Shown: one piece after another, positions 1 through 60,002 of the stretch | Layout of the letters: every line of letters starts with the position of its first letter | Position numbering within the stretch: the first letter of the stretch is position 1 | NCBI RefSeq assembly: GCF_964204645.1 | Contig: NC_134030.1 | Coordinates: forward strand, 13,510,656 to 13,574,655 | Direction: 5' to 3' | DNA length: 64,000 nucleotides | Source: Tubulanus polymorphus | Lineage: Eukaryota; Animalia; Nemertea | Notes under the pieces: generated by a model | The model's database searches: none | Seen by the model: the letters and a program-made list of their open reading frames with translations, nothing else | Told to the model about the DNA's origin: nothing | Made by a program: the position numbers and the translations under genes

Positions 1-27
1 TGGTATAAAAACATTACCTTATGGCTA

Positions 28-1323
28 TTAAAACATAAAATCAATATCATCAAACTCGAAATCACTATTGTCTTCTTCATTTTCATATAATTGTTTAGGT
101 TCTTCTTCTATTCCATTTTTTTCATTTAAATAAAGTTCTATCTTGTTCCACATTTCATCTCGCTCTCTTTGTTTCTTTTTGTTTGTTAATTCATCAAATA
201 GAATTATAATATCAAGGTTTAAATAATTTACAATCTTATTTAAAAAGAATTCATAATTTATTGAATCTGTTATTCTATTTTCTAAATGATACATTAATAT
301 TTGTTTGAATATTTTTTTTATATTTTCTATATCTTTTTCTGTTAATTTAGGTTTTTCATAATAATCGTTAAATAATAAATATAAATACATTTTCTTTTGT
401 TTTGTGTTAAATGTTGATGGAATAATTGTTTTTATAATATCTTTTTTAGTTATTTCACCATTTTCATTTTCTATTATTTTCATTTCTTCAAGCCATTGCA
501 TATATTCTGGTGTATGATCTTCTATAGAAAATGTTTTAAAAATTTCATCAAGATAATTTAATTTTGGATCTATGAGAAAATCTCTAGTTTTTTCTTCACC
601 CCATAAATTCCTTTGCCATCCACAATCAACACAAAATAACACAGGACCTTCTTGTCTTAAGGTCGTATAATAACATTGTGGGCATTTTTGTTTATAAATT
701 ATTGGTAATAGATCTTCATTAAGCTCTTGGTATTTTCTTACGTTTTCTTTATGTTTTATTGTTCTATTATGTAGATTTGAATTACTTGATGTAATAATCA
801 ATTTACAATATTTACAATAATATGTTTTTCTTGTTAATTCATTATATTGTTTTCTAACTTTTCAACTGTTTCTTCATTATCTGGTAACGTTTTTTCATAT
901 TTTATTTTTTCTAATATATTATTTTTTCTTTCATTGAATTCAGTTTCAAATTTATTAGAAATTTTATCTATATGTACTTTACGAAATTGATGATTCTCCC
1001 AATCTTCTATATTTTCGGGGTTATATTTTATTTGACAAGGCTCACAGAAATGATCTTTTATTTTATCCTTATCATAGAATAAGAAAGGTCTTTTCCAAAT
1101 AATTTCAGGTTCAACTTCAACAGAATTATTATCAACATTAGCCATTGCACCATTAATTCTACACTTCTCTGAATGTTTTTTAACATAATTTCTTGAGAAT
1201 AATTTATTACAATTTGGGCAGTTTAGTTTAGGGGGTTTATAATTTTCTTCATGTTTTTTCATATGTCGAGCCATATTACTTTTACTTCGAAGTTCACCAC
1301 AAATTTCACATGCTATCTTCCAT
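28..1323 (-). pseudogene. Multi-zinc-finger protein with C-terminal VLTF3 (poxvirus A2)-like domain; frameshifted, joins ORFs 834-1274 and 28-801
   Basis: TAAATG start at 1323. Fingers: CEICG..H..H, CPNC..H..C, CEPC..H..H, and CKYC..H..H (in frame just upstream of 801). These are followed by a CPQC..CVDCG ribbon and PKLTEKDIENIKKIFKQI / SINYEFFLNKIVNYL / KKQRERDEMWNKI, matching the VLTF3 C-terminal pattern. Confidence 0.65.
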
Positions 1324-1391
1324 TTATTAAGGAAAAATTTTATTAAAATTAATTTTTAGTGATGAGCGGTAATTTTTTTATGTTATAAATA

Positions 1392-2147
1392 ATGGTAGAA
1401 TTAAAAGAATACAGAATATTTGTTGATTCTAGAAAACTTACAAATTATAAATCACATTATTTACTAGTACAATTAGATAGAGAATTCAAGAATTGTGTAG
1501 ATTTAAAATTAGTTAATATAAGTTTATGTAATTCTTTTCATAATATATCGAATAAAAGTCTTGATCATTTAGCTTTTAAAATTCATGTTAGAAATTTGAA
1601 TAAATGGTTTCATCTTTATCTAAAACCAGGATTATATAATTTAGAAACATTAGCGCAAGAAATTAATAGAAGAGCTCGTTTAAAAATGGGTGCAGCTGCT
1701 AGATTTGAAATTAAATTTATCAAAAGTGATAGTTCGAATAAAATAAGAATAAAGTTAACTAATGAACAACATAGATTTCTAGTAAGAAAACCTTTAGCTA
1801 AACTGTTTGGAATTCTCCCGGATAGAGATTATTCAAGTATCGAAACTTATACAAATTTAATGACTTTTACACATTTTTATATTTATTGTAATTTAATCAA
1901 TCCTACAAAAACATTTGAAGCAACTAAAGATACAACATGTAATTCTAGTATAGTAAATATTTTACCATTAAAAAATGTTAAACAATTTGGAACGCAAATA
2001 AATTATAATTTAGCTGAATGTGATTTCAAACCTTGTATTCCTCAATTTAATAATTTTAAATTAGAAATAAGAAATCATAATGGATACTTAATTGATTTGA
2101 ATAACTTTCCTGTAATTTATGAATTAGTTATAAGATGTAAAGAGTAA
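1392..2147 (+). CDS. Minor capsid (penton-like) protein
   Basis: 251 aa with IFVDSR..., LKPGLYNL, FYIYCNLI, ILPL and KLEIRNHNGYLIDLN, the single-jelly-roll minor capsid pattern of Polintons/virophages. Homologs in B and C. Confidence 0.75.
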   Translation: MVELKEYRIFVDSRKLTNYKSHYLLVQLDREFKNCVDLKLVNISLCNSFHNISNKSLDHLAFKIHVRNLNKWFHLYLKPGLYNLETLAQEINRRARLKMGAAARFEIKFIKSDSSNKIRIKLTNEQHRFLVRKPLAKLFGILPDRDYSSIETYTNLMTFTHFYIYCNLINPTKTFEATKDTTCNSSIVNILPLKNVKQFGTQINYNLAECDFKPCIPQFNNFKLEIRNHNGYLIDLNNFPVIYELVIRCKE

Positions 2148-3208: not shown

Positions 3209-3643
3209 ATGGAAGATAAAGTTGATAGCATTGATATTATTCCTCATGATATAAATAAAACTAAATTAAAAACATATTTAGAAAAACAAATATTAGAATT
3301 TGAAAGTGACTTAAAGATAAAAAAGAAAAAATATTTAAAAAGTAAAATTATATATTATTTGATTATAAGTGGTTCGGTTACAATTAGTTCTGTAATAACA
3401 TTTTTAGCAATATTCAGCCCATTAACACCTTTAGCTATTTCAATTGGTGTATTAGGATTAAGTTCAAGTGTTTTAACCGGTATAAGTTCAAAATTAAATA
3501 TAAAAAGTAATAAAGAAAAAATTAAAACTAATATAAAAGAAATTAATAAATTAAAGAATACACTAGATTATATAATAAGTTTAAATGGCCATATAACAGT
3601 TGAAGAACAAGATAAATTATTAAAAGAATTAATAAATTATTAA
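3209..3643 (+). CDS. Two-TM membrane protein
   Basis: Two adjacent hydrophobic helices flanked by coiled coils; homologs at 19298 and 52288. Confidence 0.7.
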   Translation: MEDKVDSIDIIPHDINKTKLKTYLEKQILEFESDLKIKKKKYLKSKIIYYLIISGSVTISSVITFLAIFSPLTPLAISIGVLGLSSSVLTGISSKLNIKSNKEKIKTNIKEINKLKNTLDYIISLNGHITVEEQDKLLKELINY

Positions 3644-7736: not shown

Positions 7737-8864
7737 ATGGGTGGTAAAAAAACTCCTAATACTAAAGAACAATATTTAAGAAATTTATATTACAACCCTG
7801 AGAGTTCGGTTGCTTATTCTTCTACTAAAAATATATGGCGTAAAGTAAAACAAGATAAATTAGATAAGCTAATCCCACAAAATTTAGTTAAATATAAAGA
7901 TATAAATGAATTTATGTTAGAACAACCAACGTATACAACACATAAAAAAATTGTTAGAAAATATAAAACTCGTAAAACTATGGTAAGTTATGTAGATCAA
8001 CAGTGGCAAGGAGATTTAATTGATATGAAAAATCTTTAAAAAGATAATAATGATTATTGGTGGATATTGAATATAATTGATATTTTTAGTCGTTATGTAT
8101 GGAGCTTCCCACTTTATAGAAAAGATGCTGCACAAACATCACATGTTTTAAGAAAATTTCTTTCAGGTGGTAAACTAAAACCAGAAAAAATTCAATTTGA
8201 TGATGGAAAAGAATTTGATAATTCATTAGTTCATGGACTTTTAGATTTTCATAATATTAAATATTTTTCGACAAAATCGGATAAAAAAGCAGCAGTTGTT
8301 GAACGATTTAATAGAACATTAAGAACAAGAATGTGGAAATATTTTACAGCAAATAATACTTTTAAATGGATTGATGTTTTACCAAAATTTATAGAAGGAT
8401 ATAATAATTCTTATCATTCTTCTATTGGAATGAAACCTATTGATGCTAGAAAACCTGAAAATGCTGAAATTGTTTGGAATAATTTATATGGAGCATTTCT
8501 TGTTGATGATTTTGGTGAACCTAAATTTAAAGTTGGTCAAAATGTTAGAATTTCTAAGTATAAAAAGATATTTGATAAAGGATACGATCGAAATTTTACT
8601 AGAGAAATATATAAAATAAAAAAGGTAATAACAACTAAACCATATTTCTATAAATTAGAAGATTTAGATGGTGAAGAAGTTGATGGCTACTTTTACGAAG
8701 AAGAATTAAGTTTAACTACTGAAAATCTAGAACAAGAATATAAAATTGAAAAAGTATTAAAAACAAAAACTATTAAAAGAAAATAATATTCTTTAGTAAA
8801 ATGGGTTGGATGGCCAGATAAATTTAATGAATGGATATTATCAAGTAAAATTAAAAATATATAA
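7737..8864 (+). pseudogene. rve (DDE) integrase with C-terminal chromodomain, two in-frame stops
   Basis: QWQGDLIDM, IDIFSRY, QFDDGKEF, VERFNRTL, LVKWVGWPDKFNEW; stops at 8037 and 8784. Confidence 0.92.
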
Positions 8865-9473
8865 ATGAATAAGGAATTATTTATATTTGAGCCTCATAAT
8901 ATGTTAATTTCTGGTGTAACAAATTGTGGAAAAACTTATTTTATATTAAATTTATTAGAAACTGTTTATGAAAACTAGTTTGATAATATAGTATTATTTT
9001 GTCCAACATATGAATTTAATCAAACTTATAATAGAAATATTACTAGAAATAATAAATTTATTATATTAGATCCTAAAACAGTAAAAGAAAATTTAGATAA
9101 TTGTATAAAAATAGCAATTGATATTTATAAAGGATCAAATACATTATTCATTATAGATGATTGTGCTAATCTACATGATTCAATAGTTAGAGAAAGTGAG
9201 TTATGTTATTTAGCTTTTTCTGGCAGACATTTTGGGATAACAACTTGGGTTTTAAATCAAAAATATAATTCAATTGTTAAAGACTTTAGAGAAAACATTA
9301 GATTTCTAGTTTTATTCTACAATAAAGATAGAAAATCGATGAAAAATGCACTTGAGGAAAATGATATTATTCCACATGATTTACATAATGAATATATGGA
9401 TAAGTTGAAAAATATTAAAAGATCAAAATTACTATTTAGATTACAACACCCATTTAAATATGAATTTATTTAA
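8865..9473 (+). pseudogene. A32/FtsK-type packaging ATPase, one premature stop
   Basis: Walker A GVTNCGKT, Walker B FIIDD, GRH motif; TAG near 8976. Not in the ORF track. Confidence 0.9.
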
Positions 9474-11759: not shown

Positions 11760-12086
11760 TCAATCAACAATTTCTAAATCATGATGACCGTCTTCATTTT
11801 TCCCATGATATATTATTTTAAATCCTACTAAATCTTTCAATTCCTCCATACTCAATGAAACCCATTTATCGGGTAAAAACACTTTAAATTCTCGCGATGT
11901 ACTAACATTACAGTAGCTTAAATTAGCTGATACTTTCTCTCCATATTTAGTTTCTATCTTTTCTAATTTCAATATTTTATGTTCAATTTCTTTTGTAACA
12001 TCAACTAACTTTTTTATTTCAAATTGTTTTTTTGCTGGTTTTATTCTGTTATTTATTGTTGCTAAGAATGCTTTTCTATCTCCCAT
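11760..12086 (-). CDS. Small conserved protein, possible OB-fold ssDNA-binding protein
   Basis: TKYGEK, FLPD and YHGKNEDGHH shared with 32711-33037, 17181-17490 and 54526-54876; function is inference. Confidence 0.5.
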   Translation of the reverse strand: MGDRKAFLATINNRIKPAKKQFEIKKLVDVTKEIEHKILKLEKIETKYGEKVSANLSYCNVSTSREFKVFLPDKWVSLSMEELKDLVGFKIIYHGKNEDGHHDLEIVD

Positions 12087-12173
12087 TTATAAGGGAAAAA
12101 AATTTCTTGTGGTGACGAGTGGGGTGTCTCGCCCTCTCGCCCTCTGATCTGAAAGCCTACTTTTCTAATTACT

Positions 12174-13785
12174 CATGGTCACGTGCGCGACGACGCGGAG
12201 CTGTATGTTGTGTGTGGGGCGGCGATCTGCGTGGTTTCTGAAATACATTGTCTTGGGTATTTCTGGGCGGTTTTCCACTATTGTTCACAGCCGGATCCCT
12301 GGTTATAGGCGATGGAGAACGCGATCTATTATCAACATGGTTTGGGGTAGATTTATCTTGCATGTGTAGCTCAGTGTGGTGCTCGTCTCGTTTTGGTGAT
12401 GACGAATTACCTGATACCGGATCTGTGAACGATATGTTGTCGCCGGTTTGCGACAGCGTAATCATTTTGCAACTTTCATCGATAAATCGCTGAGTATTTA
12501 GAGTCTCTATTCGCTCATTCAGTTCGCGAACGGATTTGTAGGTCCGGGATTCACGTCGATCTATAATCTTTTGTGCCTTTTTTGTCCTGTCCATGAGAGC
12601 TTCAATGTTGTCACACGGCACGGTCAACATATCTACTCTTTGCAGGGTCTCGTCCATTTTTGATTTTAGGGAGTTGACATCTGATATTTTGGCACACTCG
12701 TTGACTTTCTGGTCAAGTCTCACTAATGTGGCCTGAATGTCTCCAAACAGTTTGACAATGTCCGTAACATCCATCATATTACCCGTTATGTTTGGATCGG
12801 TCTCAGCGCCGACCGATATTAGTTCTACGCTGGGTGAGGGACAGGTGGCTTGGCACACGGGCTCTGCCGAGCGTGTTTCGCATTGAGGTAGACTATCTCC
12901 TATAGTATCTGTTTGTGATCCTGTAGACTCCGAAACGGGTATTGACGATTTTGGAACACAAGGCGGACATATGTATAGTTCTTTGGTTGAGGAAGTGGCC
13001 TTGGCACGCTCCTTTTCGCCTAGGCCACAGCAATTGAAATGCGTCCAGCTACTACACAATGAACATCCGATCATCTCCTGTGTGTCGGGAGAATAACACA
13101 TCGTACATGAAGATTTTCTCTTGGGTGATAGAAGCAATTCTTTGCAACGTTTGTGTACACTGTCAACGACTCGCGGGAAGTATTCCGCCACCCATAACAG
13201 GTATGAGCTCCCCTGTACGTGGATCTTTGGCGATTTTTTCTGGGAGCCTTTGTATAACGTGATGTGTACCGAGCCGATCTGGTCACCTTTCGGGTCAATA
13301 TACGGTGTGGCGAAATGTAGTCCGTGGTTACCACGATCGGTTGGGTTACCGTGTGAAGCTCTCAGCGTTTCTAAGAAAGCTTGTACTTTGAGTTTATCTA
13401 GTATTATGACGACTGACTGAAACTGTTCATTGATTTGAATATTGTCTATTTCATTCTGATTTGTAACCGGGTTGCATTTAGTTGCGTTGCGTCTGTTGAG
13501 TGAGGTAGAGGGTTTCGAACCCTGAGTCAGTAGGTGGTCACGCAAACTCGTATACGCCGCGTTCAATTGTTGAAATTCTTCGGTCGCATTCGAATTAGAG
13601 TTCTTATCTGGGTGGAATTCCTTTGCCAATTGTATATATTTGATTCGCAGATCTTCAATCGATGGAATAATATCTAGTTGCATCGTTTTTGATAGGTTTT
13701 CTAGATCGATTTCACGACTTACATTTTCCATGGAGGGCGCCATCTTGGATTTTACATGTCGTATCTTTTTATTTATGCATTTCAC
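12174..13785 (-). CDS. DnaJ-domain + PHD-finger + coiled-coil protein, likely non-LTR retrotransposon ORF1; truncated by copy A
   Basis: LAKEFHPDKN..EEFQQLNAAY (J domain, HPD) and C4HC3 PHD CTMC..CSLC..H..C..CPPC. Intronless; the stop codon is supplied by the Polinton terminus. Confidence 0.7.
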
Positions 13786-17180: not shown

Positions 17181-17507
17181 ACTTCAAATACTTCAAATGT
17201 CAAATTGTCAAATCAGTAGATTATGAATTTAAGAAGTTAAAAGAATTAATAATCCATAAGAAATATCTAATTACAAATATTGATAGAGTTACTAACAAAT
17301 ATGGAGATAAATTAGTTATACACTTAGAATATGAAGGATTAAAAGGAAATACTATAAATTCAGAACATATTTACCGGATAGATTTCATAGATTATCAAGT
17401 GAAGATCTAGAAGAATTATGTTCTGGTGATTTCTATTTCGTATACAAAGGTAAGAATGAAAAAGGGCATCATGAAATAGATTTCAAATAAGAAAATATGT
17501 AAAATAA

Positions 17508-24878: not shown

Positions 24879-25490
24879 TTATTTTATAAATTTATATTCA
24901 TAGGGAAATTGTAGTCTCAGTAATAATTTTCAACCTTTATTATTCTTTAATTTATTCATATATTCATCATGTAATTCAGTAGGTATAATTTGATTTTCTT
25001 CCAATGATTGTTGCATAGATTTTTTATCTTTGTTATAAAATAAAACTAGAAATCTTATATTCTCCCTAAAGTCTTTAACAATTGAATTATATTTTTGATT
25101 TAAAACCCATGTTGTTATCCCAAAATGTCTTCCAGAGAAAGCTAGATAACATAACTCACTTTCTCTCACTTTTGAATCATGTAAATTTGCGCAATCATCT
25201 ACAATGAATAATGTATTTGATCCTTTATAAGTATCAATTGCTATTTTAATACAATTATCTAAATTTTCTTTTACTGTTTTAGGATTTAATATAATAAACT
25301 TTTTTATCTTAGCTATATCTCTATTATATGTTTTATTCATTTCATAAGTAGGGCAGAATAATATTATATTATCAAAATGATTCTTATAAATAGTTTCTAA
25401 CAAATCTAATATGAAATGTGTTTTACCACAATTGGTTACACCAGTAACTAACATATTATGCGGTTCAAATATAAATAAATCTTTATTCAT
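24879..25490 (-). pseudogene. Packaging ATPase (late premature stop)
   Basis: GVTNCGKT, FIVDD, GRH. Confidence 0.88.
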
Positions 25491-26593
25491 TTATTCTTTT
25501 AATTTTACTTGATAAAATCCATTCATTAAATTTATCATCATATCCTTTATATTTCACCAGAGAATACTTTTTTCCTTTAAGAGTTTTTGTTTTCAATACT
25601 TTTTCTATTTTGTATTCTATTTCATCTGGATTTGGTACAAGTGATAATTCTTGTTCATAGAAATAACCTAATATTTCTTCATCTTTTAGATCTTCTTATT
25701 TATAAACAAATGGTTTAGTTAATATTATCTTTTTAATCTTCAATATTTCTTCAGTAAAATTAGGGGTATAACCTTTATAAAAGGTTTTTCTATATTTAGA
25801 TATTCTTACGTGTTGTCCTATTTTAAATTTAGGTTCTCCGAAATCATGTGTAACAAACGCTCGATATAAATTATTCCAAACTATTTCCGAATTATCTTCT
25901 TTTCTAGCTTGTATAGGTTTCATATTTATAGAACTATGTTTAGAATTATTATAACCTTTCACTAAATCATCTAACACATCGATATATTTATATGTTTCAT
26001 TAGCAGTAAAATATTTCCACATTCTAGTTTTCAATGTTTTATTAAATCTTTCTATAATAGATGGTTTTTTATCTGAGTGTGTTGAAAAATAATCTACATC
26101 GTTATCAGATAATAGTTTTTTAAAATGTTTGTTATAAAATTCTTTACCTTCATCAAATTGTATCTTATCTGGAATAGCTTCTTTAAATATAAATTTAAAA
26201 GCATTTGTCACTTCTATTCCAGTTTTATTTTTGATTGGAATTGACCATGCGTATCGACTGAATATGTCTATAACATTTAATATCCAGAAATCTTTTGTTG
26301 TATTTTTCTAAGTTCTTCATGTCAATTAAATCTGCTTGCCATTGTTGATCGATATATGAAACCATAACTTTTCTTGTTAAATAAGTTTTATCCATTTTCT
26401 TGTGGATTTGATATGTTGGTTGATTTTGTAACCATGATTTCAATTCACTATATTTTATATCACCATGTGGGTGCCGTACTGCACCATTTTCATTATCAGA
26501 TTTAATTTTATTCCATAATTCTGAAACGTTAGAATATGATACTTCACTTTCTGGGTTATAATATAACTCTCTTAAATATTGTTCTTTTTTCAT
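25483..26593 (-). pseudogene. rve integrase with chromodomain (frameshift and stop)
   Basis: QWQADLIDM, QFDEGKEF, IERFNKTL. Confidence 0.9.
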
Positions 26594-32630: not shown

Positions 32631-34303
32631 AGTAATTGGAATATCAGGGCTTCAGATCAGAGGGCGAGAGGGCGACATACCACTCATCACCACAAGTATT
32701 TTTTTAATAAATGGGAAATAGAAAAGCATTCTTAGTGACAATAAATAACAGAATAACACCAGCAAAAAAACAATTTGAAATAAAAAAGTTAGTCGATGTT
32801 ACAAAAGAAATTGTACATTAAATATTGAAATTAGAAAAGGTAAAAACTAAATATGGAGATAAAATATCAGCAAATTTAAGTTACTGTAATGTTAGTACAA
32901 CGCGAGAATTTAAAGTATTTTTACCTGATAAATGGGTTTCATTGAGTACAGAGGAATTAAAAGATTTAGAAGGATTTAAAATAATCCATCATGGAAAAAA
33001 TGAAGACGGGCAACATGATTTAAAATTTGTTGATTAAATAAAAAAATAAATTGATAATAAGATTAATTAAATATTAAGAATCCGAAATAACTTATCTGGA
33101 CAATTTAATTGCTCCGCATAGATAGACAAAAGTAGTGAGATATTTAATTAATTAAAAATGAAATTATTTTTATGCTATTTTTCTAAAATATTAATCCATT
33201 TTTTGTGAATTTTGGAATTCCGGAAGTACTTTATTTTATATTAATAGTAGTTTCAGAATTATTGATATCATAAATTTTATTTGATTTTTTATACCAACTA
33301 TATCCAATCAAAATGAATACAATTATAAATCCAGTTGTAAAATATAAATATTTATCAAATATTCTATTATCAGAAGGAGTAGAAATAACAATATTTTTAC
33401 CATTTTTGTTAACATCTTTATTATTTATTTTTTCTTTTATAGCTTTTTTAAATTCTCTTGATTTAATTCCTAATTGCCGAGACCATTCAATTTTTTTCCG
33501 AGTTCTCGGTTTTTTCTTCACAGTTAATCCTTTCACCTCTTCCACTTCGCTCATTTATCGTAGAAAGATTTTTACTTTCAATATTTGAAAATGTTATAAC
33601 TCCAGTTGATAATAACGTCATAAATCCACCTAATTGAAATCATAAATATCCAATTCATTTATTTAATTCAGTCATGACTAAATAATCATTTTTTAAATCA
33701 AAACATAATTTATTTTCATCTTGAATTGGTAGCATATATTTACATAATTTACAATAACCTTTTACTACATTTTCTGATATCGCATCATTAATTCTAGCTA
33801 TTCTCGCAGTTTCATAAATCTTTGATAATTTAATAATTTCATCTGATTTCATTGTATCTAATTCATTATAAGTTAAATTTTTACTAATAAAACTTTTACA
33901 TTTCCCAGATGCTTTTAATATTTCTAATTGATGTTTGCAATAAAGATAATATTCATAATTATTGTTTGTAGTAATATCATTTAAAGCACCATTATTATCT
34001 GCTGTTAATTTTGTTTCTGTTATACCTAAATCATCCAAATTCTTTTCAATTGGAACATCACTATTTTTAGATTTTATTTTCTTTTCACCTCCCATTTATA
34101 TAACAAAAAAATTAATTGTGTTGTTGCAACTAGAATTTAACTAGAATGTAACTAAAAATATACTAGATTAACAAGCAAGTTGAAATATTATTGTTTTTAT
34201 TTATTTCTTGTTGAATTTTATTTTATTTTTGTTTCAACTACCTTTAACTAGAATTCAACTAGAATGTAACTAAAAATATAATAGATTAACAAGCTAGTTG
34301 AAT

Positions 34304-42830: not shown

Positions 42831-45800
42831 ATGAAAAAAGAACAATATTTAAGAGAGTTATATTACAACCCAGAAAGTGAAGCATCATATTCTAACGTTT
42901 CAGAATTATGGAATAAAATTAAATCTGATAATGAAAATGGTAATATAAAATATAGTGAACTAAGATTATGGTTACGAAATCAACCAACATATCAAATCCA
43001 CAAGAAAATGGATACAAGAGCCCCAAGGGGCACAATGGCCAGCCTGTCAGATTTGCTTTTTATAAATGATGTAATCTGTGGGTTATATTTATCAATATAC
43101 ACTCCCTGCTCAATGTCATTTACATAGTACAATCGTGTGTTAACACAGACAGCAGGAGCGAATGTTATATAGAAATACTAAGTTATTGTATTGTTCAACG
43201 CCCCTGGTGGCCATATACAAAAACCAATGAGCTTGAAACTCACCAAGATCATAGACCATGTCATGAGCTACAACCTTCCAATTGATTGTGGTAGCAAAAT
43301 ATGCATAGGTACGAATGTAATATAGAAATACTAAGTTATTGTATTGTTCAACGCCCCCTGGTGGCCATAAACAAAAACCAATGAGCGTGAAACTCACCTC
43401 AATCATAGAACATGTCATGAGCTACAACTTTCCAATTAATTATGGTAGCAAAATATGCTTAAGTATCAAAATGATGTGGCAAAACTTTTTTTTTCCACTA
43501 CGAATGAGTACTGATGACCCCAAGATGGCCGCCAATTGCGTCATAATTGCCTGGTCAAAAATACCCTCTCGGATATAAAAGATCCTTTTCCAAAGAATAC
43601 CCATTACAAATTGCAATGAAAAATGGCACACCATTAGAAAGCTACAGGACTCAGAATTCAGGCCAAAATTAACATTTTTGGGAACAAAAAAGGTCACAGG
43701 ACGGCCATCTTGAGTCCGATCGACCCAATTTTTCTCATGCCGATGGGCCCTTGGGGGATACAAATATATACGAATGATCAAGGTTATTGATAAAAGTGTC
43801 TTCAAAATTTCCCTCGAAAACTTCTAAAATGTGTAAAAAGTGCTGATTTTGGCGAACAACAATGGCTGCCAGTCGGCCATCTTGAATCTGACAGGGCCAG
43901 TTTTTGGCCTGAAGATGTGTCTAGGGTAGATACACGTATAAACCAAATATCAAGACATTACCTTGAAGCGTCTTCAAAACTTTGGAACTCTCACGAACTA
44001 TCTAGATGGTTATCTCTCGACCTCAATAGCTTCAAGACCCATCTCAAAACAACTTTGTTCCATGCAGCATACCATTAACTCTCGGAAAGCGAATTGGATT
44101 TAACATTTTTTTTGGCAGAATAAAATTTGATTGAATTTGCAATTCGAGCACATGGCTAATTAGCATATCAAGTTCATACACTCGATTTGGGAAAAGAAAT
44201 TTTTCGCGAACCTTGCGCAATTGTCAAGGATGAATTTTCTGTAGAGCAAATAAAAATTCCTCCCAAACACCAAATCAACTAAAGATTTCATAGAAATCGA
44301 TCTTGAAATACGATTTTAAATCTTGAAATAAAACCCGGAAGTAAAACAATAGACGATACCGCGGGTTCACGTGAACACCTGATTTCTGTAAACGAAATGT
44401 TGGTTGTGACAAAATTGTTCAGACGGTTTTAGGTGGTAATAAGTACGGAAACGTAACGACCATGGTCGACTTATTCGATGAAATCAGGCCTATGTGATAT
44501 CCAAATTTTGACTTTTTTATTCTCCAGACCTCCCTGATATAGAAATAAAAAATTTTGGTGGTACGAATAGTGCAATCACAGCGCCGACGGCGACAGAGCC
44601 GTGTCAGAGATCGGCGGAGTGAAAATTGCGGAGGTGGACGAACACGAAGAAGTAGGCTATTGAGCTACTTGAATCGCGAAAACTCCTGGCGCGGCCCCGA
44701 CGCTTTTCGTTGATTAAGTAGTACAAATATCAAGCAATGGGTTTTCACAATCTACCGCCGGTGTTTACCGGATTTCAATATCACTCCAAAATTCAAAGAA
44801 ACCTCGAAATATCGAACTGCAACACTTTCGAGAGATATCCGCAGCTGCCCAACCGGGAAACTTATTTGTTGATAGGATCCATCATCCCGTCAAGGGATTC
44901 GAACCCACTAAGCTAAAGCCGTGCCAGAATCGGGTCGGGCCAATCACAGCGCTTGTAACAAACCACATTAGGCTTCTGTGGAATTTCCCAGTAAATGGGC
45001 CAATCAGCGAACACGTAGCGAACGCGGAAGTCGCATGTTGATACATGACGTCATGCGCAAAAGCGCCAGTAATGAAATCACGATAATTCACGTGAACAGC
45101 TGCTGATATTTTTAGATAAACCAGGGAAGTGTGATGACTCATCACACTTCCCTGGATAAACCAATCACAGGGAAGACACAACTTCCTGATTGGCTGATAA
45201 AAATTGAAATTTTCCCGATTTTATTTTCGTGAAAAATGCAGAAAACATTTTTATGAAAGCCTATTTCAAAATTCTGCTCGCTACGATTCCGAGAATGCAT
45301 TACGCTTAAATACGTGATTTGTTCGAATATGCCCTCACTTGGCAAGCAAAAGAGCCTTTTGTGTGGAAACCATGTCATTTAAATTCGCTCCATTTGTATA
45401 GTAATAGGCTCAGCCTACGGCTGGCCTAAAAACTTATTTAACAAGAAAAGTTATGGTTTCATATATCGATCAACAATGGCAAGCAGATTTAATTGACATG
45501 AAGAACTTAGAAGAATACAACAAAGGATATTTCTGGATATTAAATGTTATAGACATATTCAGTAGATACGCATGGTCAATTCCAATCAAAAATAAAACTG
45601 GAATAGAAGTGACAAATGCTTTTAAATCTATATTTAAAGAAGCTATTCCAGATAAGATAACGATGTAGATTATTTTTCAACACATTCAGATAAAAAAGCA
45701 TCTATTATAGAAAGATTTAATAAAACATTGAAAACTAGAATGTGGAAATATTTTACTGCTAATGAAACATATAAATATATCGATGTGTTAGATGATTTAG

Positions 45801-46279
45801 TGAAAGGTTATAATAATTCTAAACATAGTTCTATAAATATGAAACCTATACAAGCTAGAAAAGAAGATAATTCAGAAAAAGTTTGGAATAATTTATATAG
45901 AGCGTTTGTTACACATGATTTTGGAGAACCTAAATTTAAAATTGGACAACACGTTAGAATATCTAAATATAGAAAAACCTTTTACAAAGGTTATACCCCT
46001 AATTTTACTGAAGAAATATTCAAGATTAAAAAGATAATATTAACTAAACCTTTTGTTTATAAACTAGAAGATCTAAAAGATGAAGAAATATTAGGTTATT
46101 TCTATGAACACGAATTATCACTTGTACCAAATCCAGATGAAATAGAATACAAAATAGAAAAAGTATTGAAAACAAAAACTCTTAAAGGAAAAAAGTATTC
46201 TCTGGTGAAATATAAAGGATATGATGATACATTTAATGAATGGATTTTATCTAGTAAAATTAAAAGAATAAATGAATAA
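42831..46279 (+). pseudogene. rve integrase with chromodomain, interrupted by Helentron-like insert and a small deletion
   Basis: N-terminus 42831-43013, resumes at 45429; QWQADLIDM, IDIFSRY, ERFNKTL, LVKYKGY..FNEW. Confidence 0.9.
43014..45428 (-). mobile_element. Helentron-like family 1, second full copy
   Basis: Reverse complement of 26884-29102 with the same termini and a different target site. Confidence 0.82.
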
Positions 46280-46883
46280 AGATTTATTTATATTTGAACC
46301 GCATAATATGTTAGTTACTGGACTAACCAATTGTGGTAAAACACATTTCATATTAGATTTGTTAGAAACTATTTATAAGAATCATTTTGATAATATAATA
46401 TTATTCTGTCCTACTTATGAAATGAATAAAACATATGATAGGGATATAGTTAAAATAAAAAAGTTTATTATATTAGATCCTAAAACAGTAAAAGAAAATT
46501 TAGATAATTGTATAAAAATAGCAATTGATACATATAAAGGATCAAATACATTATTCATTGTAGATGATTGCGCTAATTTACATGATTCAAAAGTGAGAGA
46601 AAGTGAGTTATGTTATTTAGCTTTCTCTGGGAGACATTTTGGGATAACAACATGGGTTTTAAATCAAAAATATAATTCAATTGTTAAAGGCTTTAGGGAG
46701 AATATAAGATTTCTAGTTTTATTCTACAATAAAGATAGAAAATCTATGCAACAATCATTGGAAGAAAATCAAATTATACCTACTGAATTACATGATGAAT
46801 GTATGAATAAATTAAAGAATAATAAAGGTTCAAAATTATTACTTAGGCTTCAATTTCCCTATGAATATAAATTTATAAAATAA
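46272..46883 (+). CDS. A32/FtsK-type DNA packaging ATPase
   Basis: Intact 203 aa: GLTNCGKT, FIVDD, GRHFGI, NQ. Confidence 0.92.
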   Translation: MNKDLFIFEPHNMLVTGLTNCGKTHFILDLLETIYKNHFDNIILFCPTYEMNKTYDRDIVKIKKFIILDPKTVKENLDNCIKIAIDTYKGSNTLFIVDDCANLHDSKVRESELCYLAFSGRHFGITTWVLNQKYNSIVKGFRENIRFLVLFYNKDRKSMQQSLEENQIIPTELHDECMNKLKNNKGSKLLLRLQFPYEYKFIK

Positions 46884-54525: not shown

Positions 54526-54876
54526 TTCGAAATCTATTTCATGGTGTCCTTTTTCATTCTAACCTTTGTATATGAAATAGAAATCTCCAGAACATAATTC
54601 TTCTAAATCTTCACTTGATAATCTATGAAATCTATCCGGTAAATATGTTCTGAATTTATGTGCATTTCCTTTTAATCCTTCATATTCTAAGTGGATAACT
54701 AATTTATCTCCATATTTGTTAGTAACTGTATCAATATTTGTAATTAGATATTTCTTATGGATTATTAATTCTTTTAACTTCTTAAATTTATAATCTACTG
54801 ATTTGACATTTGAAGGAACTTTTATTCTATCTAGAAATAATTTGTTGTTCTCACTGTGTGTTTGTTTACTCTCCAT
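54526..54876 (-). pseudogene. Possible OB-fold ssDNA-binding protein (late stop)
   Basis: TNKYGDK, YLPDRF, FIYKG; immediately downstream of PolB. Confidence 0.5.
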
Positions 54877-54905: not shown

Positions 54906-57900
54906 TTAACACGTTAGAATTCTTTTCATTATCTCGTTCTCTTTTGTTTCTTCTCTTTTAAATTTTAAGTATTCATCTAAATTGCAGCCATAAGCAACTG
55001 TATGAATTCCATCATCCAGAATATATCTTTTATCATCAAATGGGTTTAGACTAATGTTTTCAATTTCTTCAATAAACATTTCATGATCTTCAGATCTTAA
55101 ACATCTCATCTTATGTTTTCTAACTTCTTCATTGAATATACAATTGATGTAATCTTTGAAATGAATATTCTTTTCTACTACACTTTTGGTTATTCCTTTT
55201 ACTTTTTTAGCTTCATGTTCTTTAGTTTTATATGAATACATTTTAGATCTAATACCAATGAACTCTATCATTTCTTCACCACCTAATTCATCTTTGAATT
55301 TACCAGGAACTTTTTTATTATCATTGCTAAACAATTCATGATTTTTAGGATAGTTACTAAAATCAAAATGATGTTTTAATGTTTTTAAATCATCTGTTAT
55401 GTTATTAGTTTTTATCTTTAATATGTAACTGTCAGTATTTTTTATGATTAATGGAAATCCACAATTAAATGTACCATCTTCAGTTGTTAAATCATAAACA
55501 TATTCTGTAGGATTGGATATTTCAAATAAATCTAGCTTCTTCAGTTAGTTCATTTTCTACATGTGTTAATTGAAATACATTTGGTTTATCCTTTCTAATA
55601 TTAACTAACATATTAAATCCTAATGAATTGCATAATATATTTAATCCTGATATAGCAACTTTTCCTTTTTGTGTCAAAGATATAGTTTTCTGTTTTGTAT
55701 AGTTTTTTGAACCATCTGCAGCATAAAATCCAATGAAGAACCATTTTCTTAAATCATATTTTGCATTTAATACATAATCTGGAACTATCTTTTCTTTTGT
55801 TGAAGTATTACTTTTGACTATTGCATGAATATAGAATTCATCATTATATTTAATTGCAAAATCTTTAGGGTTATTTACAAGTATTCTATAAATTGCTGAT
55901 GATTTCATAAAATCTATGATTTTAAATGTTTTATTTGAGTAAACTTGTTCACAGTATTTTTTAATTCTATCTAATAATTTCAAATCTTGATTGCATAAAT
56001 ACCAACAATATTTAGTTCCACTAACATATTTATACACACCTGCTGATCCATCTCCCATAAAAAATCCTTTGATAAATTATTCTTTTTCTTCCAATGTTTC
56101 GGGTTCTATATTATAGATATTATCAATTATTTCATCAAATGACATATGATTCATTCTTGGGTAAAATCATTTATGTAATAATTCATCTCCAATTTTTGTA
56201 TCAGTTGGTTTTATTTCATCACCATTTTGTTTAATTAAACTATGATCTTCAGTAACATCAACAAATCCTAATTTAGTTCTAACTCTATAGATTTTCTTAT
56301 TCGTTTTATGTCTAATTATATTCTTTAATTTCACCCATCCATTGTTTGTCCAAACATCCATTAATCCATTTATTTGTATTAATTCTTTTTCACCATACGA
56401 AATATAAAGTTCATTTTGTTTTGGAATTATTTCTGAAATTCTTCTTATTAACATTTGATTATTATATTTTAAAAATATTGGGGTGTCAGCTGTAACAGAA
56501 TCAAAATATAATATTTCTATATGTTTTTCTCCAAAATGAGGTTGTAATACATTATAATAGAATTCATACATTAATAACTTTGGTATTTCTAAAACTGAAG
56601 CACCAACATAGATTGGTTTATTAAATTTCATTGATGTTCTTCTCATTTTAACTGCGGCTAAATTTTCATCAAATATTCTGTTACCTAAAAACTTAGGATA
56701 TGTTTGTAAATGCCTTATCCTTTTACCATTACTAACTAACTCAATATCATTTCTATTTCTAATATTTTCACAAGTCTTACCATAGAATGCATTATTCATT
56801 AACTTGAAGAAATCTTTCTCAAAATCAGTTTTAGTTTCAGTTCTCTGTTTGGTGTTAAAATCTATATATTTTTCTAACCACTTAGATTGACTAAATGAAA
56901 TATAACTATGTACTTTTTTTTAGGATCATTCCTTGTTTTAGATAAAACTTTAACATTCTATAATGTACTACATAATTAAATTTATCTTCCTGAGTAACCA
57001 TTAACTTTTCTGTATGAATATGATTTTCGGGTTTAATTCTTTTTTGATAATTTGATAATTCTTCATGAGTTACAGTTTTATGTTCTGGACAGTATGCTAG
57101 ATTTCTAGATTTAAATTTAATATGTTCAGGATATTCCAAGTCTACAACAAAAAAGTAACCAGTATCTGAATCATCTGCAATATCTAGGATTCTTTTCTTC
57201 CAATCAAATTTATCATTATTTTCATGTTGTTAAACTTCACTTATTTCAAATACTCCATAAGGTTGTGGTTCCATCATTGCCCAACCGTACAAATTATTTG
57301 CATCTATATATAATAACTTATATCCGGGGTTATCATTTACATTGAAATATCTATCGCCTAATACACCTGAAACTCCTCCTCTTATAGATTTTTCAAATAA
57401 TAATAATTGATCTATATTTGTTAACAAATCCATTTTTATATCTGTAAATTTTAAACCACAATCCCATGTTAATCCTGGACTTGAATAACAATGACAAGGA
57501 TCAATATTGAAATATTTTAGGTTTACATCTCTAAACCTTTCAAATATATCGGCTAATAATAATACATCTGATTTTAAATATAAATCTACTAATTGTCTAT
57601 GATTTTCTATTTTGAAATTATTCCAAATATTCAATGTTCTATTATAGACTTCATCTTTAACATATTCATTTTTTAATTCATCATAGAATTGTTCTTTTAA
57701 TAATTCAGATATATTGAAATCATTATGATTTTTATAGAAAGAATATGGAATCGCGCCTTTATATCTCATTAATTGAAAATCATCATTATTTGGGTAGTGT
57801 TGTTTTAATATTTTTAATTCATCATCAACTAATGATTTTGGAACTATTTAAAAATCTATATGAATCTATAAATCTTAAACACCCAAATTGGAATGATATA

Positions 57901-60002
57901 TAATTCTCAGATGTTTTAGCTAACATTTTAAATTCATAAGTTGGTATTTTATCTTTTGATCTATTTTAATTTAATCTTTCTATTTCATTATTGATTTCTT
58001 CTATTTTATAACATAGCTGTTTGATAAATAAATGTGCATCATATCCTGATAGATTATGAAATATAACTGGTACAAAGTTAATTTTCTTAGCTTGTAAGTT
58101 ACAATTCTCATGTGCAGCACCTCTAAACTTTCCATTCAAATGATCATGGTCTCTTACTTTTTTATCTCTAAAATTAAATATCTTTTCACAATAATAACAT
58201 TTATCTGCAAACTCAAATGCTTCTTTATCTTCTTCTGTCATTATAATTTCTATATTTCTATTTAACTTTTCATTAAATTTTATTTCATATTCAATTAATA
58301 AGTCACAAAAATGATTGATAACATTTTCATTTCTATAATCATATTATTCACTTTTAATTAGTTCTGGATAATCAGATTTTATGTATAATCCAATAGCAGC
58401 AGCTGATTGATGAATCTTTTTAATTGTATTTGTTTTTGGGGGATCTGAATAATCAATTATATTATTTTCATTAGAATTTAATTTCTTTCTTTTATAATAT
58501 ATTTCTTTTCTATCTTGATCAGTTAATTCTATATTTAATGATTCAAAATCTCCATATATGACAAATGGAACTTTATTTTTGTAATCACATTTTTTGAATT
58601 CTAATATTTTATCCTTTTCATTTGGTAAAACTAATTTACAATAATCATGATTTTCACAAAATTGTTTATGATTTAATAATGCACTTTCAGTTCTGAATTT
58701 ATGTAAACATTTTCTACATAGATATATTTTATTATCAAAATCATTTTCTGATTTAAAAGATAAATCAATTCTTTTAATCCACATATAATGATTCTCATAA
58801 TATAATATATCTATAACACCATTTGAATCATAATCTTTTGATAGATATAAAGGTTCTAATGTATAATGTTTTATATTGTTACCTTTTGTATTTGGCAATT
58901 TGATTAAATCAAATACATTTATCTTTATATTATTATCTCTTTCTATTTTTGGGATGTTTTTAATTATAACAGGATACTTATCTATCTTATAATTATTTTC
59001 AAATGGTTTATAATGAGTTAATCTAAAACTATGTGTAATATCTTCTGTTGGATGTAAGCAACTTATAATAGCCCATAGAAAACATTTATCATCAAAATTT
59101 TGTACATTTATTACAGCATTAGTTTTAAATGGTAGTTTAATATAACTCGATGCTTCAATATCTGGTTCTTTATAATATGATACATTATTTTCATTTATTG
59201 GTTTTGATTAAGTTAACTTATCATATTTTGTGTTATAAACATGTAAAGTCATAAATATTATTTCATCAAATATTAAACCAGATCCTTCAAAATATTTCTC
59301 TTCTATTTTAGTTTTTACTTCATTATAACATTTATCTAATTTATCATCTATATGTTGTTTTGAAATAATATGTTGTGAATGAGAATTTATATTATATATT
59401 GGGTTATCTTCAGATTTTATGAATTTAACTTTAACTGATATGCTAATTTTAGGATATTCAACATCAGTTATTATTTTCATTATTTCTTTCATATTTTCTA
59501 AATGTTTTTTATTTTCTTCTAATGTTTTTCCTTTATGAAATTTAAACTCGATAGCTGCTGGACCAATATCACTTTTAAATGCTTCGGTTATCTCTATATC
59601 TTTTTTATTATCTAATGAATTAATCTAATTTCTTACATCTTCCATGTATGGTCTTTTACTGTTTAATTTATTTTTAATGCTTTTAATTGTCTTATGTTTC
59701 TTATCATTATCTTCATCAAAATAATCTTCACCTAGAATATCATTATTCTTATTTCTAATATGACTTTTAGATTGTAAATGTTCATTATAATATCTTTTAT
59801 CACTGAATGATTGATTACATGTATCACATTTATATGTTTTTTTTTCATTCTTTAATTCATCTAATTTAGTTTCTAATATTTCATCTTCATATTCTAATTT
59901 CAATTTATTCTCTAAATGTGTTTTAGTTTTATTGTGCCTTGCTTTTTGGGATTTATCTATATTGATTTTACATGTTGAACAGTAGTACTTATTTGCTTCC
60001 AT
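54906..60002 (-). pseudogene. polB: Protein-primed family B DNA polymerase (multiple stops/frameshifts), intein-containing
   Basis: N-terminal C2H2 fingers; DDKCFLWA..ENHYMWI (OTU-like); YGDFES; CYYC..RDHDHLNGKFRGAAHENCN; FHNLSGYD; YLKSDV; YIDANNLYGWAM; KLMNNAFYGKT; YFD|TDS; GKFKDE; SKMY; KKVKG. Confidence 0.95.
55437..56499 (-). mobile_element. Intein with LAGLIDADG homing endonuclease inserted in PolB motif C
   Basis: YFD|SVTADTP; block B VTEDHSL; KGFFMGDGS and IGFYAADGS; C-terminal YVYDLTTEDGTFNCGFPLIIKN|TDS. Two stops (56167, 56077) and one frameshift (~55530). Confidence 0.93.

Follow-up and report, generated by a model that had tools for sequence, protein, structure and literature searches.

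A zinc-finger-fused, A2/VLTF3-like gene and TAAATG start signals in a decayed Polinton-type element

The fusion gene and its element

The window, the whole stretch of 64,000 nucleotides that was analysed, contains several nested, decayed copies (A, B and C) of one AT-rich element (~23% GC), which by its predicted gene content is a Polinton/Maverick with an rve integrase, an A32 ATPase and a protein-primed PolB. The PolB of copy C gives a match to PF03175, and its pieces are 54–78% identical to the PolB of L001, a 6.5 kb sequence in which a relative of the gene described here is intact. The host is a eukaryote and probably an animal, the single direct sign of this being the RhoGAP exon-like flank of L001. 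Pox_A32 matches at 46272 (E 4e-12), where the sequence is 81% identical to 8865–9470, and the rve match at 8067 (E 5e-5) lies below the cut-off. The sole Pfam sign of a capsid is a Capsid_N match of E 0.013 on a fragment of copy C, with further searches giving nothing significant, and neither an RNA polymerase gene nor A1 was found within the window. Copy A extends past the window edge, has its left end outside and is seen in part. Next to the fusion gene lies a divergent gene (Table 1), which on the basis of its size and position, and without a family match, is called putatively penton-like.

Table 1. Features of the fusion gene, its neighbours and the alternative gene in its slot
Feature	Position	Strand	Remarks
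C-terminal tail of copy A PolB	2..31	+	GIKTLPYGY-stop, like L001 PolB end; tail-to-tail with fusion gene
Fusion-gene 3' piece	28..861	-	finger 4, ribbon, A2/VLTF3-like helical domain, acidic tail
Acidic tail	31..111	-	D/E at 12 of the last 27 residues
Helical A2/VLTF3-like domain	115..573	-	poxvirus-type motif INYxFFLxKI at 232–261
C4 zinc ribbon	622..684	-	aligns with A2/VLTF3 ribbon; four Cys invariant
Finger 4, U1-type	751..816	-	C-x2-C-x11-H-x5-H; PF06220, E 2e-7
Fusion-gene 5' piece	834..1323	-	fingers 1–3
Finger 3, U1/matrin-like	972..1046	-	C-x2-C-x14-H-x5-H
Finger 2, C2HC	1161..1220	-	C-x2-C-x11-H-x3-C
Finger 1, C2H2	1251..1310	-	C-x2-C-x11-H-x3-H
Start signal	1321..1350	-	A-run, then TAAATG overlapping start codon; near-identical in L001 and L002
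Divergent neighbour	1392..2147	+	first gene of block common to copies B and C
105-aa slot gene, copy C	54559..54876	-	between PolB end and common block; partial copy in B at ~17200–17450

The fusion gene (28–1323, minus strand) comprises 432 codons for four zinc fingers, a C4 ribbon, a helical domain and an acidic tail. An earlier note, made from the sequence alone, had joined two open reading frames into one gene of ~430 codons, and this holds, both in length and in that an intact relative matches the two pieces in order. Ribbon, helical domain and acidic tail, which the note had described, are all found in the 28–861 frame; the four fingers that it listed as C2H2/C2HC are also present, but two of them are of the U1/matrin type and not classical C2H2 fingers. 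The two minus-strand frames, 834–1355 (173 aa) and 28–861 (277 aa), are different frames that overlap at 834–861, and the ATG at 1323, in TAAATG context, is in frame with 28–861 yet is followed, five codons on, by a stop. The gene is thus broken twice, just past its start codon and in the overlap.

A phmmer search against 1.84 billion representatives returned three matches. P0001 (697 aa, 47% identical) matches the 277-aa frame with E 4e-59 and the 173-aa frame with E 9e-18 and 1e-15, the spacings of all four fingers being identical to those of the window gene; P0002 (446 aa) carries four fingers ahead of the domain, and P0003 (281 aa) consists of the domain alone, without fingers. Because P0001 and P0002 carry it intact, the fusion of fingers and domain is natural, and an assembly artefact is ruled out as its origin. 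A host zinc-finger gene is ruled out as well, by the 23% GC and the adjacency to PolB. In L001 the intact gene for P0001 lies tail-to-tail with an intact PolB of 1336 aa, and copy A is arranged likewise, as 2–31 (+) encodes the tail of a PolB. The fusion is known from two clusters only, of three members and one. Word-indexed protein searches added no relatives to P0002 and P0003, blanks that weigh little as P0001 was missed despite being in the collection; no relative emerged from viral contigs scanned with P0001, the domain and the putative capsid as queries, and the PDB, searched by sequence, contained no relevant match. In marine metagenome run X5 the share was small and 88% of it continued into dissimilar sequence, and we therefore claim no habitat. 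The finger-less 281-aa family member (P0003/P0006) occurs on contigs of 6–13 kb.

In raw reads from a different sample of organism A the fusion gene has a depth of 179–317, and these reads are mostly 90–99% alike, which makes it a multi-copy family. Length differences from the window are seen in 170 of 254 reads at one break and in 102 of 191 at the other, and the breaks are therefore not common to all copies. Of the 354 places in the whole stretch 40 are listed, and the 31 best-supported substitutions among them that lie within the gene divide over the codon positions as 9, 10 and 12, a spread to be expected of a single dead copy in neutral decay. Depth over the fusion gene is ~0.38 of that over the conserved part of the common neighbouring gene, and 339 reads pass from this neighbour into B/C-type upstream sequence. 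No second copy or remnant of the fusion gene was found elsewhere in the window, so that copies B and C lack it, as the earlier note had said of copy C; its description of copy C as full-length does not stand, copy C itself being decayed. The slot in copy C is taken by a 105-aa gene unrelated to the fusion gene. The fusion gene is an exchangeable accessory gene, optional in the family. Distant paralogues of the 105-aa gene (~30% identity), with TAAATG starts and without a family match, occur elsewhere in the window, the family positions being 54559–54876, 11760–12086, 32711–33034 and 17207–17451.

The ribbon and helical domain

Judged from sequence comparisons, the ribbon and helical domain are a remote homologue of A2/VLTF3, which we file as A2/VLTF3-like and not as a member of PF04947. 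In hhalign, an alignment of four family sequences reached 97.05% against 37 poxvirus-type A2 proteins (E 7.7e-11, 192 columns) and 93.7% against 74 giant-virus VLTF3 proteins (E 1.8e-7), with 60 column shuffles against the latter set staying at or below 5.8%; the two reference sets reach only 7.6% against one another. The giant-virus set comprises the 74 complete proteins from 120 motif matches (8 of 8 tested belong to PF04947). The A2 set, fetched by the motif INYxFFLxKI, comprises 37 proteins of 200–240 aa from 55 matches (6 of 6 tested belong to PF04947); the label poxvirus-type reflects the A2L ribbon family and the sizes of the contigs, names having played no part. Excluded from its profile were 15 frames that were short or had no ribbon (including the 270-aa L163) and three loci without an in-frame motif. 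A scan for additional A2 types brought up no contig that had not been collected before. The A2 profile gives the window domain 30.7 bits (maximum of 300 shuffles, 8.6) and the giant-virus domain profile gives it 11.9 (shuffle maxima, 7.9–9.3), with P0003 within the shuffle range on this second profile. Pairwise BLASTP to two A2 proteins gives E 3e-10 (198 columns, 23% identity) and E 2e-7, and PF04947 clusters make up 27 of 30 ESM Atlas matches (best 0.96; P0001 0.93). Pfam PF04947 itself, with its gathering threshold of 25 bits, matches neither the window protein (E<=0.05) nor P0001–P0003 (E<=1), and the whole-protein giant-virus VLTF3 profile gives the window protein -5.4 bits. The VLTF3 homology put forward in the earlier note is thus upheld by hhalign, the A2 profile, BLASTP and the Atlas; of the profile check that it proposed, the Pfam part (Pox_VLTF3) came out empty and the comparison with the A2 and VLTF3 sets positive.

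With poxvirus A2/VLTF3 (PF04947 plus the A2L zinc ribbon, PF08792) the window protein shares a C4 ribbon followed by a compact helical domain of equal length, with the invariant Cys, Phe, Asn-Tyr and Trp, and INYxFFLxKI identical at 8 of 10 positions. All four ribbon cysteines are invariant in alignments of 42 and 16 rows. Unlike A2, it adds four N-terminal fingers and an acidic tail, forms a separate long branch and is encoded in an integrating element. To the giant-virus (non-pox) VLTF3 proteins it is colinear over ribbon and helical domain, but their near-invariant KRxNHF, YEH and NFLSYSY are not kept. When the ten motif residues are masked, the scores become 13.0 versus 15.3 bits uncorrected, and 10.2 versus 3.5 with composition correction; a closer relation to the poxvirus proteins rests largely on INYxFFLxKI, as masking removes most of the poxvirus advantage. 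A tree of 30 rows (13 pox, 13 of the 39 giant-virus and 4 element sequences), built without entomopox, asfar, egovirus, mriyavirus and polinton-like virus (PLV) sequences, has three long-branch groups, the element group with support 86/74. The phylogeny with NCLDV VLTF3 that the earlier note had called for thus yields a separate group and no nesting, and because the element group nests in neither known group no donor can be named.

Structure prediction from the single sequence gave an unusable model (pLDDT 44), whereas an alignment in which 39 giant-virus VLTF3 rows joined the window domain and two relatives gave one of pLDDT 87.7. Foldseek against viral models (BFVD) places cowpox and two entomopoxvirus VLTF3 proteins at ranks 1, 2 and 4, with E 2.7e-6 and TM 0.64 for the top match, a match that is not independent, as the model was built with the 39 giant-virus rows (and no poxvirus rows). 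Against the PDB, Foldseek found no match at E<=0.001 (E>=0.33). VIA-align gives Z 5.2–6.5 and rmsd 3.3–4.5 over 82–113 residues, below the trust level of the tool; 17 of its top 20 rows bear the titles of TFIIB, cyclin, Rb or ORC entries, headed by a chain of the ORC1-6 complex (Z 6.5). A ribbon and a helical domain are also what the window protein has in common with TFIIB and the cyclin fold, from which it differs in having at most one repeat in that domain.

Start signals and possible function

TAAATG, at which the earlier note had placed promoters of the element, stands at 22 of 25 hand-chosen starts, some of them homologous and three taken from L001 and L002, versus 29 of 440 internal ATGs, and we consider the start signal to be real. 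Without selection it heads 34 of the 80 frames of at least 70 aa, fragments and flanks included. All 13 homologous starts checked in copies that lack the fusion gene keep it as well, and another factor must therefore be able to read TAAATG. The earlier note had copies without the gene depend on its product in trans; such a strict requirement is not supported, as these 13 starts, the 105-aa gene filling the slot and the depth of ~0.38 speak against it.

Upstream of TAAATG two classes were set after inspection: runs of 5–7 T ahead of eight genes, the putative capsid gene included, and runs of 4–6 A ahead of seven, including the fusion gene, integrase and ATPase. By analogy, these classes resemble the late and intermediate promoters of vaccinia, described in the accessible text of PMC5294985 and PMC11980589 as T residues with TAAATG and as A-preferring with TAAA, respectively. 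Vaccinia A2L, A32L and D13L are given as intermediate in the source text available, and the element counterparts of A2L and A32L fall in the A-run class, in agreement with this. Misfits are the T-run of the L001 PolB, the A-run of the penton-like gene of copies B and C, and the putative capsid gene, which is T-run here whereas D13 is intermediate in vaccinia; the 'late' T at -10 is present in 3 of 7 A-class starts. This start code of T-run or A-run and TAAATG occurs in all copies of the window.

We favour, with a probability of roughly 0.4, the reading that the intact protein would act as an optional factor boosting transcription of the element from TAAATG starts on the polymerase of a poxvirus-type helper. 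Genes starting at TAAATG would then be read by the helper's polymerase, as in virophages, a polymerase that we infer because no RNA polymerase gene was found in the window. The fusion gene, of the A-run class, would be expressed ahead of the T-run genes, in line with the intermediate class of vaccinia A2; ribbon and helical domain would replace or supplement the helper's A2 in the initiation complex, the fingers would tether the protein to element nucleic acid, and the intact protein would so favour the element's own TAAATG promoters within the helper's transcription system. Because the start signals persist unchanged in copies that lack the gene, we propose a booster and not an indispensable factor. 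Virophages and helper-dependent PLVs (PgVV, Mavirus, Sputnik and entomopoxvirus-associated ones) are comparable as small, capsid-type elements with promoters of a large-virus type at their gene starts: PLVs are packaged with entomopoxviruses according to the portion available of PMC11296320, in which the words 'promoter' and 'transcription' do not occur, and PgVV and its helper have a common promoter in the published text at hand. Here, with no helper known, the likeness is one of promoter resemblance only. According to the available text of PMC11464507, Zamilon lacks a transcription factor of its own. A broader reading, tentative and to our mind possible though doubtful, is that a Polinton lineage, probably of animals, consists of integrated satellites of a poxvirus-like virus, with its two-step promoter code copied genome-wide and, in some, a finger-tethered late factor from a third VLTF3 lineage; the last part is suggested by the hhalign values of the element family with the pox and giant-virus sets (97% and 94%) next to the 7.6% between these two.

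Alternatively, the protein could be a nuclear activator or TFIIB-like factor working with host RNA polymerase II, TAAATG being the element's own, helper-free initiator. Polintons integrate in nuclear DNA and L001 ends in a RhoGAP exon-like flank; ribbon, weakly cyclin-like fold and acidic tail would suit such a factor, and mriyaviruses, as far as described in the accessible part of PMC11253617, have retained VLTF3 while lacking an RNA polymerase and are presumed nuclear, which counts against a helper. We nevertheless hold this explanation to be unlikely, given that TAAATG, with its T at -3, overlaps the starts just as it does in poxviruses. Weakly against processing by polymerase II is also that AATAAA is not depleted in the coding strands of the L001 genes and the copy A block, where it occurs about once per 100–185 nt (L001 gene, 22 seen versus 19.3 expected).

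Quite unlikely, in our estimate, is that the protein is a decoy, entering the late complex of the helper and blocking the helper's late genes in a virophage-type interference. Such a role would go with a gene that is optional, far diverged from both known groups and stripped of their conserved surface motifs except one, and virophages do alter the expression of helper transcription factors (PMC11464507, text accessible in part); a general block would, on the other hand, harm the element, whose genes use the same TAAATG, and the complete ribbon and the predicted fold are retained. Very unlikely is also an A2-like fold repurposed for replication or genome handling with the adjacent PolB, even if the two genes stand tail-to-tail in the window and in L001, PolB is headed by the same type of finger and an ORC1-6 chain is the top structural row: that row's Z of 6.5 is under the trust level, and in copies B and C the slot holds an unrelated gene. 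That the VLTF3 likeness is mere chance in a helical protein that is rich in K/E/N and has a generic zinc ribbon, as the lack of a Pfam match, the negative whole-protein score and the place of P0003 in the shuffle range might suggest, is highly improbable in view of a colinearity over ~190 columns with two separately collected families, well above shuffles, and of the best Atlas value of 0.96.

The occurrence of VLTF3 in polintoviruses is already published, and the novelty that the earlier note attached to a VLTF3 in a Polinton was overstated. It is reported for coral polintoviruses (PMC11131425, citing a 2016 paper) and for ~30% of two PLV clusters (bioRxiv 10.64898/2026.06.19.733378), and is named in the figure legends of PMC8502044 (Fig. 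6) and bioRxiv 10.1101/2022.07.28.501842, all in the sections of these sources that were available. There, too, it is a patchy accessory gene in a Polinton-type element; compared by description only, those portions differ from the present case in mentioning no finger fusion, pox motif or promoter analysis. The finger fusion and poxvirus-type promoters were not found in the literature searched: titles and openings, with subscription papers and most supplements outside the search, contain neither a finger-fused A2-type factor nor TAAATG promoters in Polintons, term searches of PMC4028283 and PMC5499653 gave no match, and the one supplement of PMC11131425 covered has no VLTF, while its other supplements may describe the same family.

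These findings bear on the open question of transcription in animal Polintons and its possible dependence on a helper virus. With an initiator of poxvirus type at almost every gene, and an A2-like factor besides, such dependence becomes directly testable, and if a helper is indeed used, this would point to an unseen virus in the host. VLTF3, treated as diagnostic in the accessible text of PMC11253617, is weakened as a marker confined to Nucleocytoviricota, and divergent copies of the present kind escape Pfam.

Other features of the window

The integrase–ATPase module at 7737–9470 is unlike those at 24882–26587 and 45426–46880 in its order, its orientation and its sequence; the integrases of A-type copies are 62–69% identical to those of B/C-type copies, the structural block being common to both. 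A gene of 144 aa at 3209–3643, of a two-helix membrane type and with a weak SLATT match (E 0.004), is conserved at 94–99% among the copies. Beyond copy A, in a stretch of higher GC, a 538-aa frame with DnaJ and PHD domains (12169–13785, minus strand) is probably another mobile element. PolB (59760–59981; L001 2138–6148) starts with two U1-type fingers that have the spacing of finger 4 of the fusion protein, and contains an endonuclease VII-like insert. In copy C, PolB also holds a decayed intein with a LAGLIDADG endonuclease (55440–56500, minus strand; TIGR01445, E 1.5e-7, and PF14528), which sits between D and T of the catalytic motif YFD/TDS and is absent from the PolB of L001.
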